Virus record (IMG/VR): IMGVR_UViG_3300000944_000006
Location: 1-18,379 of that record
DNA: 18,379 bases
Direction: 5' to 3' (one strand)
Source: a virus
Taxonomy: Duplodnaviria; Heunggongvirae; Uroviricota; Caudoviricetes
Shown: piece after piece, positions 1-13,099 of the stretch
Layout: each line of letters opens with the position of its first letter
Position numbering within the stretch: the stretch's first letter is position 1
Translations under genes and position numbers: made by a program
The notes under the pieces: model-generated
What the model saw: the letters and a program-made list of their open reading frames with translations, nothing else
Told to the model about the DNA's origin: nothing
Database searches by the model: none

Positions 1-3000
1 TTAGCCACCTGACACCTTGGTCAAATCTTGCTTGGGTTAGCACATATTCTGCCGTAAAGGTTTCAGCATCTGCCGTTACAGGTAAACTGACAATAGTTAA
101 CGAACCAACCCCTGAATAGTCGCTATGCATACCATAAAATATTATGTTATAAGTAACATTGCCTGTTGGTGGTGTAACTACTCTTCCCCTCGCTGTTATC
201 CTATAAGTGTTCCCTACAATCGCAGGCAAGGCACTTCTCTGTGAAATTGGCTGTTCTGCCGTACTTCTAATCCCAAAACCCTCTAACGGGTCTTCAATTA
301 ATGAGTGGGCAGGACTGCCTGTAACAGGTCTATCAGTATCGGGATGTCCGCTAAAATCCTCAATAAAAAAATCATCGGCGTTCTCGAATGTGTTTGGTCG
401 CAACTGTCTAGCGTTGGTAAGGGATTTGTTCGAATATTCTGCTGATAGCGTAGCAGAAGTACCCGCCGCATCTCTTAAATTACTTGTTTCTGTAAAAAAT
501 TCTGCTAAGTTTGAAAATAGAGAATTGCCATTTAAAGTAGTTGTGTCGCTTAATTGAATTCCCCCTTGGTTGATAATATCATTGCCTTGGTCGTCGCGTA
601 TCACGATACCAAAATTACCATTACCGTCAGTATCCCCTATAATCACCCGCGATACAATTCCGTCTGTAACGGTTATTCGATTACTACCACCATCCAATTC
701 TAAATTAGTATCGCCAATAAAAAGACTTTGTGTGAATGTAGAACTTGCAACAATACGGTCTGCGCCAATAGTACCTTGTACAATAAGATTGCCGTCAATT
801 ACTTGTGTAACAGGTATCCATGTCGTACCATCCCATGCGCGTGTTTCCGAAAACCCTAAAGTTGCGTTAGATATAATCACGGTATCGTTTAAAGTATTTG
901 TAAATCCTACAGTAGAAATAGCGTTATTTGCTATAGTGTTTGACCAAGTAGTTCCTGTCGTGGTTGCATAAAATTGACTAGACCCACGGATTCCATCTTC
1001 ACCATCATTTCCTTTTGGAATAAACAATCCCCATTCATTACCATTACCGTTATCTTGTATGATATACGAATTGCCATCATCAATATTTGAATATACTGAA
1101 TTTATATTAAAATTTGCAGGGTCTGGTTCATTAGACGTAGAAAAATTGCCGATGAATGTTATTTGTGGGGCTGTCGTATCTATTCCACCTACAAAAACTG
1201 TACCATTTTGAATAGTGAAAGGTGTTACGATATCGCCTGTAGATGTATCTACGATTGAAAAGTTTGTGACATCAAAGGTTAAAGAAGACCCGAAATCAGT
1301 TCTTTCTACATTCGAAACACTATTCCAAACCGCATTAGATAAATCGCCAATAAGATTATCGCCAGATGTGAAATTACCATTTTCTGAAATTACTCTTAAC
1401 TGTTTGGTGTTTCTATTCCATGAAACAACTGTCGCAGAAAATGTTGATGTGGTAAGATTGTTTCCTATGAAAATCTGTTCGCCAATACGATAATTTACAT
1501 CATTTACAGGATTATCTACTGTTATAGTGTGTGTAAAATCCGATAAAAGGTTTATTCCAGAAACTATTCCGTCTTGGTCTAACGTAAGTGTATAACCAGA
1601 CGAAATGCCGTCTATAGAATTTAAAGTTTCTTGTATTCTTGTTGTGTTGTCATCAACACTCGTCTCAAAAGTTGTTACTTGCTGTGCAATAGCAATATTT
1701 TGTTCTTCTCGGATAGTGGTTTCAATGTCAAGACGTGCAGAAACATCTGACACTCTAAAGTTGTCTATACTTACCCAATTTTCGCCATTAAATCTATATT
1801 GGTCAAATCTAGGAACACTTACTGTCGATGGTGTGTTTGGCGAAAATACATCATTTCCAACATCAAAATTATTTGAATCTGTGATGCTTTCTTGGCTTAT
1901 ATCAAACCAAATGTCACCAACTTTAGGCGCGGGCGAAAAGTCACTATTAGGAATTATTTCTGAAAAATAAACAGCGATTTGACCGTCTTGTATTTCTGTA
2001 AATCTTGCTGTCCCGACAATAGCTTGTTCTATAGAAGGGTCTGTAACTCTATCCCATGTTTGTGTCACTTCGTTAAATGTGTATGCTTCATTTCTAACTT
2101 CGTTAGTGTCTGGCGAAACACTTATATCAATCCAGACATCCCCATCATTACCTGTTTCAGGCTGTGAAGGTGAAAATAGAATATCAATTCTTCCATCAAC
2201 AATATTTTGGTCAAAGGCTAATATGTCCAAAGAATTGTTTAAAAGAGGGTCTATATATTCGACATAATCTGTTCCGTTATATTCTAAAAGATTTTGCCCA
2301 TCAATCCAGATATCACCTATTGCCGATATTGCAGCAGAAGGTTCTTGCGTTAAGAAATGAAGTCTTACAGATTCGTTTTGAAGTCCAGATGTTAAATTTT
2401 CAAATGCTTGGTCTAAAACATCATTATTGAAATTTATCCAACGATTATTTTTTAAACGATATACATCGCCAGAATCTTCACGTAACCAAAGGTCGCCTTC
2501 ATTACCACCAAAAGGTATTGAAGCACTTCTAAACACAACCAGAAGTTCATCTGATATAGCAGCATTTAAACCTGCGCGTATAATCGCATTGCCAAATGAA
2601 ACAGAATTTGTTCCTGTCCATGTTTGTGTTATGTTATTCCATACAAGGCGTTCAGAAGTTGTTTCGTGTTGCCAAATATCGCCATTTGCAAAAGGCCCAT
2701 CTAAAAAGTAATTAGGTTCTGTGGCAGATATAATCGTCTGATTAGTGCCGTTAAGTATTTCTGCTTCTGATATCTGTGCGTTGCTTGTAATACTTTGAAA
2801 TTCTCCATCGACAAATACAAATCCTTCGTTATTATTTGATGTGTCAAACCAAATGTCGTTTTCTTGGGCATTTTCAGGTGGTGTATCTTGGACAAACACA
2901 GAATTTCCTGAATTATTATTGATATTATCGTCATTGTTGTTGTCATTATCACCAGTGTTATCGCCGCCAATAACGTCATCAGAAGCACCATCATCCCCGC

Positions 3001-3778
3001 CGTCATTATCAGTTCCGTCACCGCCGTCTATAGCACCGCCTGAAACATTAGTTCCGTCACCATCGACAGAACCGCCTGTGTTCAAATGTATTTGTCGACC
3101 AGTGATAACAACACTATCACTTGCAGAAAGATTTAAAGTTCCGCCTGAAGCAATATCCACGTCACCTGCTACTTCAAAATTAGCATCGCCGTTTACAGAA
3201 ACATTTAAATTACCACGAACAAATAGATTCTTATTGTCAAGAATAATTTCAAAATCTTCCCCGCGTATCTTTTGAACATGGTCGCCATTAGGATGATATT
3301 CTTCAAAAGAACCGCTTTTGTGATATATTTGTATTCTTTCTGCACCGCTCGTACCGTCGATTTCTATGAATGAACCACGATTAGCAATAACCGTATTGAA
3401 ACTATATTCTGTAGCATATTCTGAAGACGGTTCTGAAAATAGATTTGTTTTAAGAGGAACATTTGGATTTAAGTTTGTTCCTTTTGCATTTTGGTGCAAG
3501 TCGTTGTTGCCAGAAAGAACGCCTATAACAATAGGGTCTTGCATCGCTTCTACATCGTTAAAGTGAACGATTACAGTAGCATTAACAGGAATAACGTCTG
3601 AAATACCTGTTTGATTTTCAATAGAATTTACTGTGACACTTGCCCAAGGTAAACTTTCTGTCGGTATATCGCTTTTACTAGGCGAATGAAAACCATAGAT
3701 GCGTACACGCACACGACCTGCTTCTAAAGGGTCTTTATTGTCTTCTACTATTCCGTAAAAAATGAAGGGCTTTTTCAT
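1..3778 (-). CDS. gp5: gp5-like baseplate central spike without lysozyme, fused to a long tail-fibre/tip-attachment (J-like) extension; 3' end lies beyond the window (>1259 aa)
   Basis: Manual translation from ATG 3778 is open to the window edge. MKKPFIFYGIVEDNKDPLEAGRVRVRIYGFHS..IPTESLPW is the gp5 N-terminal OB motif. It is followed by EIDGTSGAERIQIYHKSGSFEEYHPNG, then beta-helix repeats ending GRQIHLN (aa 233). Absent from the ORF track because there is no stop in the window. Confidence 0.92.
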   Translation of the reverse strand, partial: MKKPFIFYGIVEDNKDPLEAGRVRVRIYGFHSPSKSDIPTESLPWASVTVNSIENQTGISDVIPVNATVIVHFNDVEAMQDPIVIGVLSGNNDLHQNAKGTNLNPNVPLKTNLFSEPSSEYATEYSFNTVIANRGSFIEIDGTSGAERIQIYHKSGSFEEYHPNGDHVQKIRGEDFEIILDNKNLFVRGNLNVSVNGDANFEVAGDVDIASGGTLNLSASDSVVITGRQIHLNTGGSVDGDGTNVSGGAIDGGDGTDNDGGDDGASDDVIGGDNTGDNDNNNDDNINNNSGNSVFVQDTPPENAQENDIWFDTSNNNEGFVFVDGEFQSITSNAQISEAEILNGTNQTIISATEPNYFLDGPFANGDIWQHETTSERLVWNNITQTWTGTNSVSFGNAIIRAGLNAAISDELLVVFRSASIPFGGNEGDLWLREDSGDVYRLKNNRWINFNNDVLDQAFENLTSGLQNESVRLHFLTQEPSAAISAIGDIWIDGQNLLEYNGTDYVEYIDPLLNNSLDILAFDQNIVDGRIDILFSPSQPETGNDGDVWIDISVSPDTNEVRNEAYTFNEVTQTWDRVTDPSIEQAIVGTARFTEIQDGQIAVYFSEIIPNSDFSPAPKVGDIWFDISQESITDSNNFDVGNDVFSPNTPSTVSVPRFDQYRFNGENWVSIDNFRVSDVSARLDIETTIREEQNIAIAQQVTTFETSVDDNTTRIQETLNSIDGISSGYTLTLDQDGIVSGINLLSDFTHTITVDNPVNDVNYRIGEQIFIGNNLTTSTFSATVVSWNRNTKQLRVISENGNFTSGDNLIGDLSNAVWNSVSNVERTDFGSSLTFDVTNFSIVDTSTGDIVTPFTIQNGTVFVGGIDTTAPQITFIGNFSTSNEPDPANFNINSVYSNIDDGNSYIIQDNGNGNEWGLFIPKGNDGEDGIRGSSQFYATTTGTTWSNTIANNAISTVGFTNTLNDTVIISNATLGFSETRAWDGTTWIPVTQVIDGNLIVQGTIGADRIVASSTFTQSLFIGDTNLELDGGSNRITVTDGIVSRVIIGDTDGNGNFGIVIRDDQGNDIINQGGIQLSDTTTLNGNSLFSNLAEFFTETSNLRDAAGTSATLSAEYSNKSLTNARQLRPNTFENADDFFIEDFSGHPDTDRPVTGSPAHSLIEDPLEGFGIRSTAEQPISQRSALPAIVGNTYRITARGRVVTPPTGNVTYNIIFYGMHSDYSGVGSLTIVSLPVTADAETFTAEYVLTQARFDQGVRWL
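1901..2900 (-). repeat. Six ~60-aa protein repeats (P-x5-7-GD[ILV]W[FILQ]) inside the gp5 extension
   Basis: NDIWFD 2843-2860, GDIWQ 2669-2683, GDLWL 2483-2497, GDIWID 2300-2317, GDVWID 2126-2143, GDIWFD 1901-1918; spacing 174-225 nt. Confidence 0.85.
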
Positions 3779-3783
3779 GAAAA

Positions 3784-3791
3784 TATTTATA
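3784..3791 (-). promoter_or_regulatory. T4-type late promoter TATAAATA for gp5
   Basis: Exact TATAAATA on the minus strand, 5 nt upstream of ATG 3778. Confidence 0.85.
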
Positions 3792-3802
3792 TACGAATAT
3801 TA

Positions 3803-5802: not shown

Positions 5803-5985
5803 TTACTGCTGTTGTTGTTTCTCTTGCTCTTTATTGTGCTTGTTTAATATGCCAATGTAAACGTCACGTTCCCAAAGAACCATATTTTCAAGTTCTGTTA
5901 AAGAATATTTATAAGCATTAATGAGTACAGCATTTGTTTCAAAATAACTGTCTAGGTCAAATTCCTTGACCGTTAGGACAAAAAA
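5803..5985 (-). CDS. gp51: gp51-like hub assembly protein, probably made as the -1 frameshift extension of gp26
   Basis: Frame reads FFVLTVKEFDLDSYFETNAVLINAYKYSLTELENMVLWERDVYIGILNKHNKEQEKQQQQ*. YSLTELENMxxWERDxY is the gp51 motif. No ATG/GTG/TTG precedes the motif. Not in the ORF track. Confidence 0.82.
   Translation of the reverse strand, partial: FFVLTVKEFDLDSYFETNAVLINAYKYSLTELENMVLWERDVYIGILNKHNKEQEKQQQQ
5906..5913 (-). promoter_or_regulatory. Late promoter TATAAATA inside gp51, upstream of the tape measure gene
   Basis: Exact octamer about 110 nt before TTG 5797; it overlaps the AYKY codons, so it could be coincidental. Confidence 0.5.
5955..5985 (-). other. Putative -1 programmed ribosomal frameshift signal (T-TTT-TTG plus hairpin)
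   Basis: Heptamer at 5985-5979, 7-nt spacer, then stem GGTCAA/TTGACC with a 5-nt loop (5971-5955). A -1 shift joins gp26 to the gp51 frame. Confidence 0.75.
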
Positions 5986-7923: not shown

Positions 7924-7931
7924 TATTTATA
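7924..7931 (-). promoter_or_regulatory. Late promoter TATAAATA for gp2-gp54-gp26
   Basis: Exact octamer 5 nt upstream of ATG 7918. Confidence 0.85.
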
Positions 7932-8178
7932 TTCCAAACTCAAAAAAATGTATGCTGAATATCTTAGAATTTGGATATTTTTTAACTCTTCCATAAAATG
8001 TCACATTTTTAATATATAATGTATCATGCAAATCGTAACAGCCTTCGTAGCCAAGAATACCTTCTTCTAAACTGTCATCATTGAAAACTGTGTCGTATAA
8101 TGCGCCTGTTTCACAATGAAAAAGTGTAAATTCTTCCTTAAAATAAATGAAGTCGCCTTGTATTGTTGCTTTCGTCAT
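7927..8178 (-). CDS. Hypothetical protein (83 aa), possibly a remote member of the YKYK-TG family
   Basis: ORF fills the gap between gp2 and gp27 and follows a late promoter. N-terminus TKATIQGDF loosely resembles KFKLQGKL. Confidence 0.6.
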   Translation of the reverse strand: MTKATIQGDFIYFKEEFTLFHCETGALYDTVFNDDSLEEGILGYEGCYDLHDTLYIKNVTFYGRVKKYPNSKIFSIHFFEFGI

Positions 8179-8186
8179 AGTGTTTC

Positions 8187-8198
8187 TATTTATAAATA
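8187..8198. promoter_or_regulatory. Overlapping divergent late promoters (palindrome TATTTATAAATA)
   Basis: TATAAATA on + at 8191-8198 (ATG 8210) and on - at 8194-8187 (ATG 8178). Confidence 0.78.
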
Positions 8199-8209
8199 CA
8201 CTTGAAATT

Positions 8210-9985
8210 ATGAGTAATTTAGACGGAATCCGATTTTCAACCGAGTATGAACTACTCGAAGCGACACTTAATACACCAGATGGTAACAGCTACGAAATAG
8301 CTGATATTATCGTTGCGTTAGAAATTGTAGAAGATATTACCAAGCCCTTTATAAAGGGAAGTATAGGCATCCAAGACGCAGTAGGCTTTGTTTCGCAGAA
8401 TATTAATGGTGGTGAAGAATTTATATTAAGATTTAAAACAAAATCTGCCCCGATGGAATATGAATTTAGTAAGACTTTTCGTGTCTATGAAATATCAAGA
8501 CGTGAACAAAAGCAAGCCAAGACATTATACTGGCAGGTAGAAATCATTTCAGAAGAATTTGTTAAGAACATCGACACAAAGATTTCACGCGCGTTCAATA
8601 ACCAATATACTTATCAAATCATACAAAACATTCTTACTAATGATTTAGAAACAGACCAAGATTTTGATTTTGAGCAAGACACTGACATACAAAATTATGT
8701 TATACCGTACATGCATCCTTTTGAAGCTATCAATTTCTTTAAAACACGGTCTATAAATGATAATAGTAATGCATCATTCTATTTCTTTGAAAATAGGGAT
8801 GGTTTTAAATTTATGTCGCTTGAAGGATTAAATCAAAAAACGCCTGTTGAATTTTTTCACAAGCCCTATGGATTTAGTGAACCATTTGCCAGACATAATT
8901 TTGTTGAAGATTTTTTCCCAACAGAAATGGCATATGACAATATTCTTGAAAATAAGAAATCTGGCCTTGAAGGTACACACGGAACTTATATAGAATTGAC
9001 AGAAAAGCGCGTCTTTACGCAAGGTGATAATAGAGCATCACAATTCATTAAAGTTTTTTCGAAAGACCAAGACAATCTTTCTCGAAAATGGTTAGAAAGT
9101 CGCGCGAAGAATATTTCTGATTTTGAAAGTATAAATTATACATTTCATATGAACGGTTCAACACTTCGTACTGTCGGGGATACTTTTAGATTTAATTTGC
9201 CTGCTGCACATACAGACACGACAGGGTTTCTTGAACAGGATGAAAAGCTTGATGGTGTCTGGATTATGAAGCGTATCAAGCATGATATTGTAGGCACTGT
9301 GTATAAACAACATATCGAAGCGTGTAAATTTGAAGGGAATTTGATTGTAACAAATGAAGAAAGGCCAAATAATCTTACGAGTGACCGTGAAGAATATACT
9401 GAAAATGTTACGCGCGAACGTGGTATGAACTGTAATCCACAAGACCTTTCGCCGCGTGGAAGATTAGAAATAATGTCTCATGAAGGTATTGTCATACGGC
9501 GCTATCGTGACACGCAAGGTGTCTGGACAATAGGATTAGGTGTAACACGCTTTGCAGGTGCGTCTATTAATCCAGAACGTTTTACAGGGTTTATATCAGA
9601 AGACCAAGCATTTGACTTGTTCGATGAAGTCATACAGCAATATATAGATGGTGTAAATCGTGCAAAAGAATGTGTTGATTTAACACAAGAAGAATTTGAT
9701 GCTTTGGTATCACTTGCGTATAATGTCGGGGAAAATTTAGGGCCAAAGACTATAGAATATATTCGTGATGGTCGTGTGGTTGATGCTATTAATCTATGGC
9801 GAGCAAATCCAGAATTACAAGAAAGACGTGATAGAGAAGTTACGCTTGCATCTACTGGAACATATTCTGGACGATTTATAAACGTACACACCGCCGATGA
9901 AGACGGTGTGTTAGACTTAAGACCAATACGTTCTATAAGAATTAATAACGGTAACGTTGAAGATTCTGGGGAACTAATTGTTTAA
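8210..9985 (+). CDS. gp27: gp27-like baseplate hub protein fused to a C-terminal GH24 lysozyme (591 aa)
   Basis: The N-terminal ~395 aa have hub-type motifs (EDITKPFIKGSIGIQD, YFFENRDGFKFMSLEGL, LDGVWIMKRIKH). The C-terminal part has HEGIVIRRYRDTQGVWTIG (E-x8-D-x5-T at 9482/9509/9527) and EFDALVSLAYNVG. ATG 8210 follows a late promoter. Confidence 0.82.
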   Translation: MSNLDGIRFSTEYELLEATLNTPDGNSYEIADIIVALEIVEDITKPFIKGSIGIQDAVGFVSQNINGGEEFILRFKTKSAPMEYEFSKTFRVYEISRREQKQAKTLYWQVEIISEEFVKNIDTKISRAFNNQYTYQIIQNILTNDLETDQDFDFEQDTDIQNYVIPYMHPFEAINFFKTRSINDNSNASFYFFENRDGFKFMSLEGLNQKTPVEFFHKPYGFSEPFARHNFVEDFFPTEMAYDNILENKKSGLEGTHGTYIELTEKRVFTQGDNRASQFIKVFSKDQDNLSRKWLESRAKNISDFESINYTFHMNGSTLRTVGDTFRFNLPAAHTDTTGFLEQDEKLDGVWIMKRIKHDIVGTVYKQHIEACKFEGNLIVTNEERPNNLTSDREEYTENVTRERGMNCNPQDLSPRGRLEIMSHEGIVIRRYRDTQGVWTIGLGVTRFAGASINPERFTGFISEDQAFDLFDEVIQQYIDGVNRAKECVDLTQEEFDALVSLAYNVGENLGPKTIEYIRDGRVVDAINLWRANPELQERRDREVTLASTGTYSGRFINVHTADEDGVLDLRPIRSIRINNGNVEDSGELIV

Positions 9986-13091: not shown

Positions 13092-13099
13092 TATTTATA
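13092..13099 (-). promoter_or_regulatory. Late promoter TATAAATA for gp48-gp53
   Basis: Exact octamer 5 nt upstream of ATG 13086. Confidence 0.85.

Follow-up and report, generated by a model that had tools for sequence, protein, structure and literature searches.

In textbook contractile tails host finding is left to lateral fibres on the baseplate rim and piercing to a sharp central spike, and the locus described here raises the question of whether both tasks can fall to a single protein chain. The stretch of DNA analysed (the window, 18,379 nucleotides) is the first 18 kb of the 151,219-nucleotide IMG/VR virus record IMGVR_UViG_3300000944_000006 (G000) and carries on its minus strand an open reading frame (ORF) of 1259 codons that starts as a T4 gp5-type spike, continues far past the usual spike terminus and reaches the window's first base without a stop. 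A sequence-only reading of the window had proposed that a gp5-type spike is fused here to a siphovirus-like central fibre. Our analysis supported this architecture and located the same fusion on other metagenomic contigs, and the function proposed for it is plausible by homology: the gene probably encodes a PAAR-capped spike with a tethered central receptor-binding fibre, in a marine T4-like myovirus of the VrlC-baseplate type.

The open end of the frame and the placement of residue 233, the last of GRQIHLN, at nucleotide 3080 had been read correctly from the window. An independent re-assembly of the source run gave a 19-kb contig (depth 15.4) that covered window positions 20–3800 with zero differences or variants, and a stop or frameshift looked for between the spike core and the extension was not found in this continuous sequence. 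The two ends of G000, which is rated 100% complete, share a 44-nucleotide overlap; when the circle was closed after removal of the overlap, the frame gained 570 codons and reached a stop at G000:149464, for a total of 1829 residues. We consider this 1829-residue reading of the gene very probable, and the join on which it depends is weighed below. The suggestion that ORF callers miss the gene did not hold, as it is recorded in the form of two separate partial proteins, the contig break falling within the gene.

The N-terminal core aligned with T4 gp5 with whole-protein E values of 2e-25 to 2.6e-24. Its OB domain matched PHROG 694 (E 3e-18) and Pfam Phage_base_V at a sub-threshold level (E 6e-4, 20.5 bits versus a cut-off of 23.8), while residues 104–198 aligned to T4 gp5 365–461 and were followed by beta-helix repeats. 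The OB domain and the C-terminal triple-stranded beta-helix are thus those of T4 gp5 (PDB 1K28, 1PDL, 5IV5; gp5.4 at the tip), and neither alignment nor Pfam scan identified a counterpart of the T4 gp5 lysozyme part (~108–364) between them. Five free-standing gp5 homologues of 234–258 residues stop 0–9 residues past the position of IHLNTG (residues 230–236), and three IMG/VR loci have an open frame of 258 codons ending at the same gp5 position; these ends and the T4 gp5 alignment agree with the earlier claim of a lysozyme-free core closing at its usual terminus. Short marine gp5 homologues likewise lack the lysozyme, which for this reason is a mark of T4 gp5 proper, not of the family at large. 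Whereas T4 carries its lysozyme within gp5, a Phage_lysozyme match was located here at residues 444–551 of a 612-residue hub protein encoded on the opposite strand to the spike gene (window 8147–9985, plus strand), the N-terminal part of which matched the gp27-like tail-protein family PHROG 350. The gp5C-type helix is present but is not the end of the protein: T4 gp5 has 575 residues in all and its short homologues 234–258, whereas ~1,590 residues follow the helix tip in this chain, which is encoded by the only gp5-like gene of the genome.

An exhaustive HMMER search of 1.84 billion representatives, with 4,389 gp5-core hits, showed that the spike-fibre fusion is real and recurrent, because the same fusion occurs, at 33–39% identity, on two more metagenomic contigs and a third relative joins a gp5 core to another fibre. 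The first homologue, P0009 (1,687 residues), aligned with residues 2–933 at 38% identity through the core, linker, repeats, helix and middle domain and shared the pb4 motif further on, with a different C-terminus; Pfam assigned it both Gp5_OB (E 5e-23) and PB4_spike. The second, P0013 on contig L027, matched residues 7–1023 with one frame change. P0009 and L027 come from two other sequencing runs, and QIHLNTG at the core end is invariant in both and in the phage described here. In the third relative, P0047 (2,055 residues), encoded on a T4-like contig of 151 kb that also bears gp53 and NAMPT genes, the gp5 core is followed by a different fibre with a Phage_Tail_Tip match above cut-off. Other metagenomic gp5 cores carried 300–700 additional C-terminal residues, in one case a VgrG3-like lysozyme. 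In P0151 (604 residues) a gp5-type core precedes a C-terminal domain that is VgrG3-like and matched GH46 weakly; the wall-degrading domain of this phage spike thus comes after the beta-helix, as it does in evolved VgrG3.

The middle module (residues ~340–930) was also found at the start of giant proteins of 2,275–5,109 residues that have no gp5 core (P0010, P0011, P0012 and P0014; contigs L020 and L021), one of which is encoded on a 116-kb contig at a distance of 1.7 kb downstream from a PAAR gene. A 291-residue gene product near the giant fibre on L021 was not gp5-like, and an unfused ancestral layout is thus not established. None of 50,697 phage records joined the extension to gp5 in a cultivated phage, nor was the architecture annotated among them in any T4-like relative, and profile-guided scans for the core-extension junction returned no further full example in IMG/VR or JGI metagenome contigs. 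Word-based homologue searches were swamped by low-complexity words and returned 4 and 3 proteins. The fusion is accordingly recurrent but rare in public data. We found no description of a gp5-fibre fusion in the literature, the coverage of which was incomplete, so that absence is not proven.

The extension opens with a linker in which 69% of residues 234–295 are Gly, Asp or Asn and which carries a 36-residue insertion in comparison to both homologous fusions. The repeats that follow start at residues 308, 367, 429, 489, 547 and 622; the count of six given by the sequence-only reading was correct, whereas five are GDxW and one is NDIW, and P, GD and W do not vary among 7 homologues. An AlphaFold2 model of residues 296–940 built from a 7-sequence alignment had a mean predicted local distance difference test (pLDDT) score of 55.9 and was used for repeat secondary structure only; each repeat was modelled as three short strands and a helix, with pLDDT ~70–80 within repeats, and helices were placed with low confidence at residues 671–699 and 712–721. 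A Foldseek comparison of this model with the PDB returned nothing at E up to 0.001.

Beyond the helical segment the recognisable parts belong to siphovirus central fibres. The T5 pb4-type domain was identified by a Pfam scan of residues 900–1110 alone, with profile positions 202–300 of 315 covered, and PB4_spike was absent from the whole-protein Pfam scan results at E 0.01. Residues 803–1020 aligned to solved T5-type pb4 fibres (8hre, 7zlv; pb4 415–654) with E 5e-5, PHROG 22201 ‘tail fiber protein’ covered residues 909–1108 (E 5e-14), and the extension also matched ‘straight fibre’ proteins of T5-like Vibrio phages and gave tail-fibre hits. The pb4-type domain includes the short G-X-Y stretch GNDGEDGIRG and the IDGNLIVQGTIGADRIVA stretch (IDGNLIV...IVA motif); these two, PFTIQNGTVFV, the Gly/Asp/Asn linker and the helical segment had all been picked out in the window and are all present in the translation. 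With PB4_spike at 39.9 bits, the pb4 alignment and a distal part 59–67% identical to J-type sequences, the proposal that the extension contains siphovirus central-fibre modules was supported. For the DUF1983 and lambda-J-like segment that had been proposed more specifically, the DUF1983 profile itself (now Phage_Tail_Tip, PF09327) remained sub-threshold at residues 830–865 (E 7.8e-4, 19.7 bits versus a cut-off of 22). CAMP factor, R-Ras and a ‘head closure’ PHROG also scored weakly, and these hits were taken as chance or as coiled-coil and repeat noise.

The last ~730 residues (1098–1829) form a distal module for which no family matched, and which is shared with the lambda-J-type tip protein of a siphovirus from the same sample, as judged by sequence identity. 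This siphovirus is represented by L004, a 50-kb IMG/VR contig with the gene order DUF1833 (gpL-like), NlpC/P60 (gpK-like) and then P0007, a 1,382-residue protein with FNIII-A_GpJ and Phage-tail_3 domains. The last ~160 residues of P0007 are 67% identical to residues 1098–1260, and P0008, the ORF after it, is 59% identical to residues 1322–1829. The G+C content of the gene is 0.41–0.46 at residues 1101–1400 (0.44–0.46 at residues 1098–1259), in comparison to 0.336 for the genome and 0.47–0.52 for the two L004 ORFs, and this rise above the genome value fits acquisition from a donor of higher G+C. Language-model look-alikes were treated as leads only: CBM_4_9 for the start of the distal module (0.87), which is all that was recovered of a proposed CBM-like or jelly-roll part given the lack of a family match, and Phage_Tail_Tip clusters for the last 584 residues (0.91). 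An AlphaFold2 model of the latter from 3 sequences reached a pLDDT of 33 and was unusable.

The genes around the fusion are those of a myovirus baseplate. Upstream lie gp48-, gp53- and gp2-like genes and genes for a tube-like protein, a gp26-like protein and a gp29 tape measure-like protein. Downstream are genes for a 101-residue helical protein, an 86-residue PAAR protein, gp25, gp6, a gp7-like protein and a 1,876-residue DUF4815 protein of VrlC type, directly followed by the neck (head-tail adaptor) gene (DUF4815 and neck genes at L003:564-7150; G000:139563-146149). This layout is known from marine cyanomyophages and pelagimyophages (PMC7029224), and the nearest cultivated gp6 is 32–33% identical. 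The gene thus occupies the baseplate-cluster position of T4 gp5 and the short marine gp5 genes, with a PAAR-type tip gene downstream and then gp25 and gp6; in cyanophage S-CAM3 a 295-residue protein in the gp5 position (assigned by position only) is directly followed by PAAR, gp25 and gp6. The 101-residue acidic, probably helical protein encoded between the spike-fibre and PAAR genes (L003:10121-10426; G000:149120-149425, minus strand) had no family match, and since its gene does not resemble those that follow the homologous fibres on L004 and L017, no shared chaperone could be named.

The single PAAR gene of the genome, two genes downstream of the spike-fibre gene and ahead of gp25 and gp6, lies beyond the window and was hence invisible to the sequence-only reading. 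A complex model placed the 86-residue PAAR protein on residues 227–236 of three chains with a score of 0.89 (best of 3 controls 0.00), a mark that 51 of the 78 solved complexes attained and 2 of the 108 mismatched pairs, although this pass may reflect memory or likeness only, because like complexes have been solved (T4 gp5–gp5.4; gp5 helix–PAAR, 4JIV and 4JIW). The runs agreed in at least 49% of contacts and the partner pLDDT was at least 93. The coordinates of the features are collected in Table 1.

Table 1. Features of the spike-fibre gene, with positions in the window unless prefixed G000.
Feature	Position	Strand	Basis or remark
Spike-fibre gene, residues 1–1259	2..3778	-	One open frame
Spike-fibre gene remainder, residues 1260–1829 and stop	G000:149464-151175	Across circular junction	Frame uninterrupted once the 44-nucleotide overlap is removed
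T4-type late-promoter motif TATAAATA	3784..3791	-	6 nucleotides before the spike-fibre ATG
gp5-type N-terminal OB domain, residues 7–99	3482..3760	-	Alignment to T4 gp5 11–107
gp5C-type linker and triple-stranded beta-helix, residues 104–236	3071..3469	-	Alignment to T4 gp5 365–563; PHROG 430, E 8e-53
Gly/Asp/Asn-rich linker, residues 237–295	2894..3070	-	Composition
Six ~60-residue (G/N)DxW repeats, residues 296–680	1739..2893	-	Motif P...(G/N)DxW...W
Helical, probably coiled-coil segment, residues 681–726	1601..1738	-	Low-confidence model; conserved in homologues
Conserved middle domain, residues 727–921	1016..1600	-	Conserved in P0009 and giant fibre proteins
T5 pb4-type spike domain, residues 922–1017	728..1015	-	Pfam PB4_spike, E 3.4e-10, 39.9 bits, cut-off 27
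Fibre segment without family assignment, residues 1018–1097	488..727	-	Overlaps PHROG 22201 span
Distal module start, residues 1098–1259	2..487	-	67% identity to C-terminus of P0007 (L004)
Shared stretch, part of 51-nucleotide run identical to siphovirus contig L004	1..49	.	Contig break and 44-nucleotide overlap fall inside

The motif TATAAATA was also observed directly upstream of the gp2-like and gp48-like genes and 109 nucleotides ahead of the TTG that is listed as start codon of the tape-measure-like gene (motif sites 5906-5913, 7924-7931 and 13092-13099, all minus strand), positions as for T4 late promoters. Its count of 7 in the window is not significant alone, being reached in 7 of 200 shuffles.

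Receptor binding and a central position would follow from the topology of the chain and from its homologies. The protein must be the structural spike. As the C-terminus of the core is the spike tip, the extension must begin on the tail axis, and with PAAR at the helix tip the linkers must pass around it, so that the fibre would leave sideways. Residues 1 to ~236 would form the trimeric gp5 device, in which the OB domain docks on the hub and the short beta-helix follows, and each of the three chains would continue through the flexible Gly/Asp/Asn linker into ~1,590 fibre residues in the order DxW repeats, helical segment, pb4-type beta-helical spike domain and distal lectin-like or tip module. 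The three linkers would exit the helix tip sideways around the capping PAAR cone, and the chains would then re-associate into a trimeric fibre hanging along the tail axis, of which the distal module may bind the host receptor. On contraction the tether would let the fibre swing aside, in the manner of the T5 central fibre, and the PAAR-tipped spike would pierce. T5 provides a precedent for these steps, as three separate strings merge there into the pb4 spike and the fibre bends ~160 degrees aside on receptor binding (PMC10038345). The distal module itself may have been acquired by recombination from a lambda-like siphovirus lineage of higher G+C, one that is present in the same sample.

The known systems closest to the fusion each differ from it. 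Residues 922–1017 match the C-terminal third of the PB4_spike profile of T5 pb4 (PDB 7ZLV, 8HRE; PF24168), whose FNIII strings dock on the pb3 hub; here the anchor is the covalent gp5 spike of a contractile tail, no FNIII family matched the spike-fibre protein in Pfam, and no pb3-type hub was found. T5 pb4 is not itself receptor-binding and carries pb5, a homologue of which was not seen in this phage, no search for one having been made. The distal ~730 residues resemble lambda gpJ-type proteins at 59–67% identity (the P0007 end and P0008), whereas the hub-forming Phage-tail_3 and FNIII-A_GpJ domains of the J N-terminus were not found in the protein by Pfam, and the gp5 core takes the place of the tail tip cone as anchor. 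The evolved VgrG proteins of Vibrio cholerae (VgrG1, VgrG3) also have a chain that passes the beta-helix end while a PAAR protein is encoded, a resemblance that goes back to Shneider et al. 2013, cited in PMC12407873. VgrG however holds its gp27-like and gp5-like parts in one chain, where this phage has a separate gp27-like gene, and the VgrG extensions are effectors of a few hundred residues in contrast to a 1,590-residue fibre without effector match. Alteromonas phages offer a further parallel, since a receptor-binding module is reportedly likewise common there to co-living phages of different tail types; there it belongs to separate lateral fibre genes with a chaperone, whereas here the module is grafted onto the puncturing spike (PMC10579305).

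Two alternatives concern what becomes of the extension once it has been made. The fusion may be produced and then cut in or near the Gly/Asp/Asn linker at assembly, so that the virion would hold a PAAR-capped spike and a separate fibre that is held non-covalently, attached elsewhere or discarded after service as an assembly aid. We consider such a cleavage unlikely, although T4 gp5 is itself cut after its lysozyme during assembly (reviewed in PMC3004832), the linker, being of low complexity, is exposed and variable, the complex model seats PAAR at the helix tip, and the middle module occurs without a gp5 core in the giant proteins, where a covalent spike is therefore not needed. Pfam scans of the protein identified no protease domain, S74 chaperone or known cleavage motif, and retention of the fusion in three diverged lineages, and again in P0047, indicates that covalent linkage matters at least during assembly. 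It is highly improbable that the extension is instead a cargo, an enzyme or envelope-acting domain taken into the periplasm with the spike in the style of evolved VgrG. The spike is known to enter the periplasm (PMC12407873) and other metagenomic gp5 cores do bear C-terminal enzymes, of which P0151 is an example, but no enzyme or effector family matched within the 1,590 residues in Pfam or PHROG, the recognisable parts are fibre modules (PB4_spike, PHROG 22201 and the J-type distal module), and the distal look-alikes, leads though they are, are carbohydrate-binding and tail-tip proteins. At ~170 kDa per chain the extension is also far above known spike cargo.

A third alternative concerns the end of the gene, and would have the circle falsely closed at the stretch shared with the siphovirus, in which case the last 570 residues would be foreign and the true end would differ after residue ~1259. 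The 51-nucleotide identical run (window 1-49; L004:6448-6498) sits within flanks that are 71–74% identical, and by exact search of IMG/VR the shared 45-mer occurs solely in the L004 contig. In the re-assembly several contigs converge at window 20-49, including the 19-kb contig, a 42-kb contig (depth 36) that goes on into sequence encoding the L004 protein and an 86-nucleotide linker (depth 39); as the break falls inside the run shared with L004 and contigs converge there, it is therefore repeat-induced. Both assemblers broke their contigs at this run, which resembles a recent recombination junction at a module boundary. The false closure would account for a contig ending inside a stretch identical to another phage of the same sample, for a junction never contained within one contig and without a match in an exact search of IMG/VR (sequencing runs X2 and X3 from that sample yielded no coverage), and for the depth of the short junction contig. 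We nevertheless consider it very unlikely, since L004 passes through the shared stretch alone, which leaves the two arms of the contig as mutual partners, both arms keep one frame open and are collinear with L004, the C-terminal arm runs on without a break into the myovirus PAAR, gp25 and gp6 genes, and the depths differ (15.4 versus 36). The C-terminal piece is also not siphovirus DNA, as it is only 59% identical to the siphovirus copy, and a false closure would in any case leave intact a spike-fibre fusion of at least 1259 residues.

Several points weigh against a PAAR-capped spike with a tethered central fibre on the virion. The fusion is known as a gene sequence, and the long protein would have to be incorporated intact. 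Fixing a fibre to the point with which a spike has to pierce poses a mechanical difficulty, the surface there is also contested by a PAAR cap, and the P0009 linker has only ~24 residues. Both structure models were poor (pLDDT 56 and 33), and neither led to a fold match. That residues 1259 and 1260 are joined was deduced and not read within one contig, the depth of 39 of the 86-nucleotide junction contig fits the siphovirus path better than a path common to both phages, and the homologous region in L004 shifts frame right after the shared stretch. The last point corresponds to a frame change of the J-type ORF at L004:6489-6530, with ~32 codons fewer than in this phage; the L004 distal part is a separate 538-residue ORF from an internal GTG, for which a real split, a frameshift or an assembly error are all possible. 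The argument that the genome has no other fibre is likewise weak. Among 25 frames of at least 400 residues none besides the spike-fibre frame matched a tail-fibre family, and the 34–45-kb host-recognition cluster known after VrlC in pelagimyophages and cyanomyophages is absent here, yet two large ORFs, the only ones without PHROG or Pfam match (510 residues, G000:65449-66981, and 488 residues, G000:80033-81499, both minus strand), could hide virion proteins and shorter fibres may have been missed.

A wider reading, which we offer only tentatively and regard as doubtful, is that this lineage gave up lateral long tail fibres and recognises its host in siphovirus fashion by means of one axial fibre tethered where the piercing spike ends, that binding of this fibre positions or triggers the contractile tail, and that the fibre tip is exchanged with co-occurring lambda-like siphoviruses hunting the same host.

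In summary, one chain joins host-finding and piercing parts by use of components from the central fibres of non-contractile tails (T5 pb4, lambda J). The components themselves, gp5 and evolved VgrG spikes on one side and pb4 and J fibres on the other, are known, and a host-recognition fibre at the spike tip was not found described for T4-like phages. If the fibre is carried on the virion, host-recognition modules could pass from one tail type to another and also change their attachment point on the machine, and it would become a concrete question by what means a spike capped by PAAR can pierce while a ~500-kDa trimeric fibre is tethered at the tip. The tail fibres of uncultivated marine T4-like phages are mostly unrecognised (PMC7029224), and these abundant phages would gain a candidate receptor-binding protein. 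The 51-nucleotide stretch and the shared distal module link the 151-kb myovirus and the lambda-like siphovirus to a probable common host, and may be of use in host assignment.

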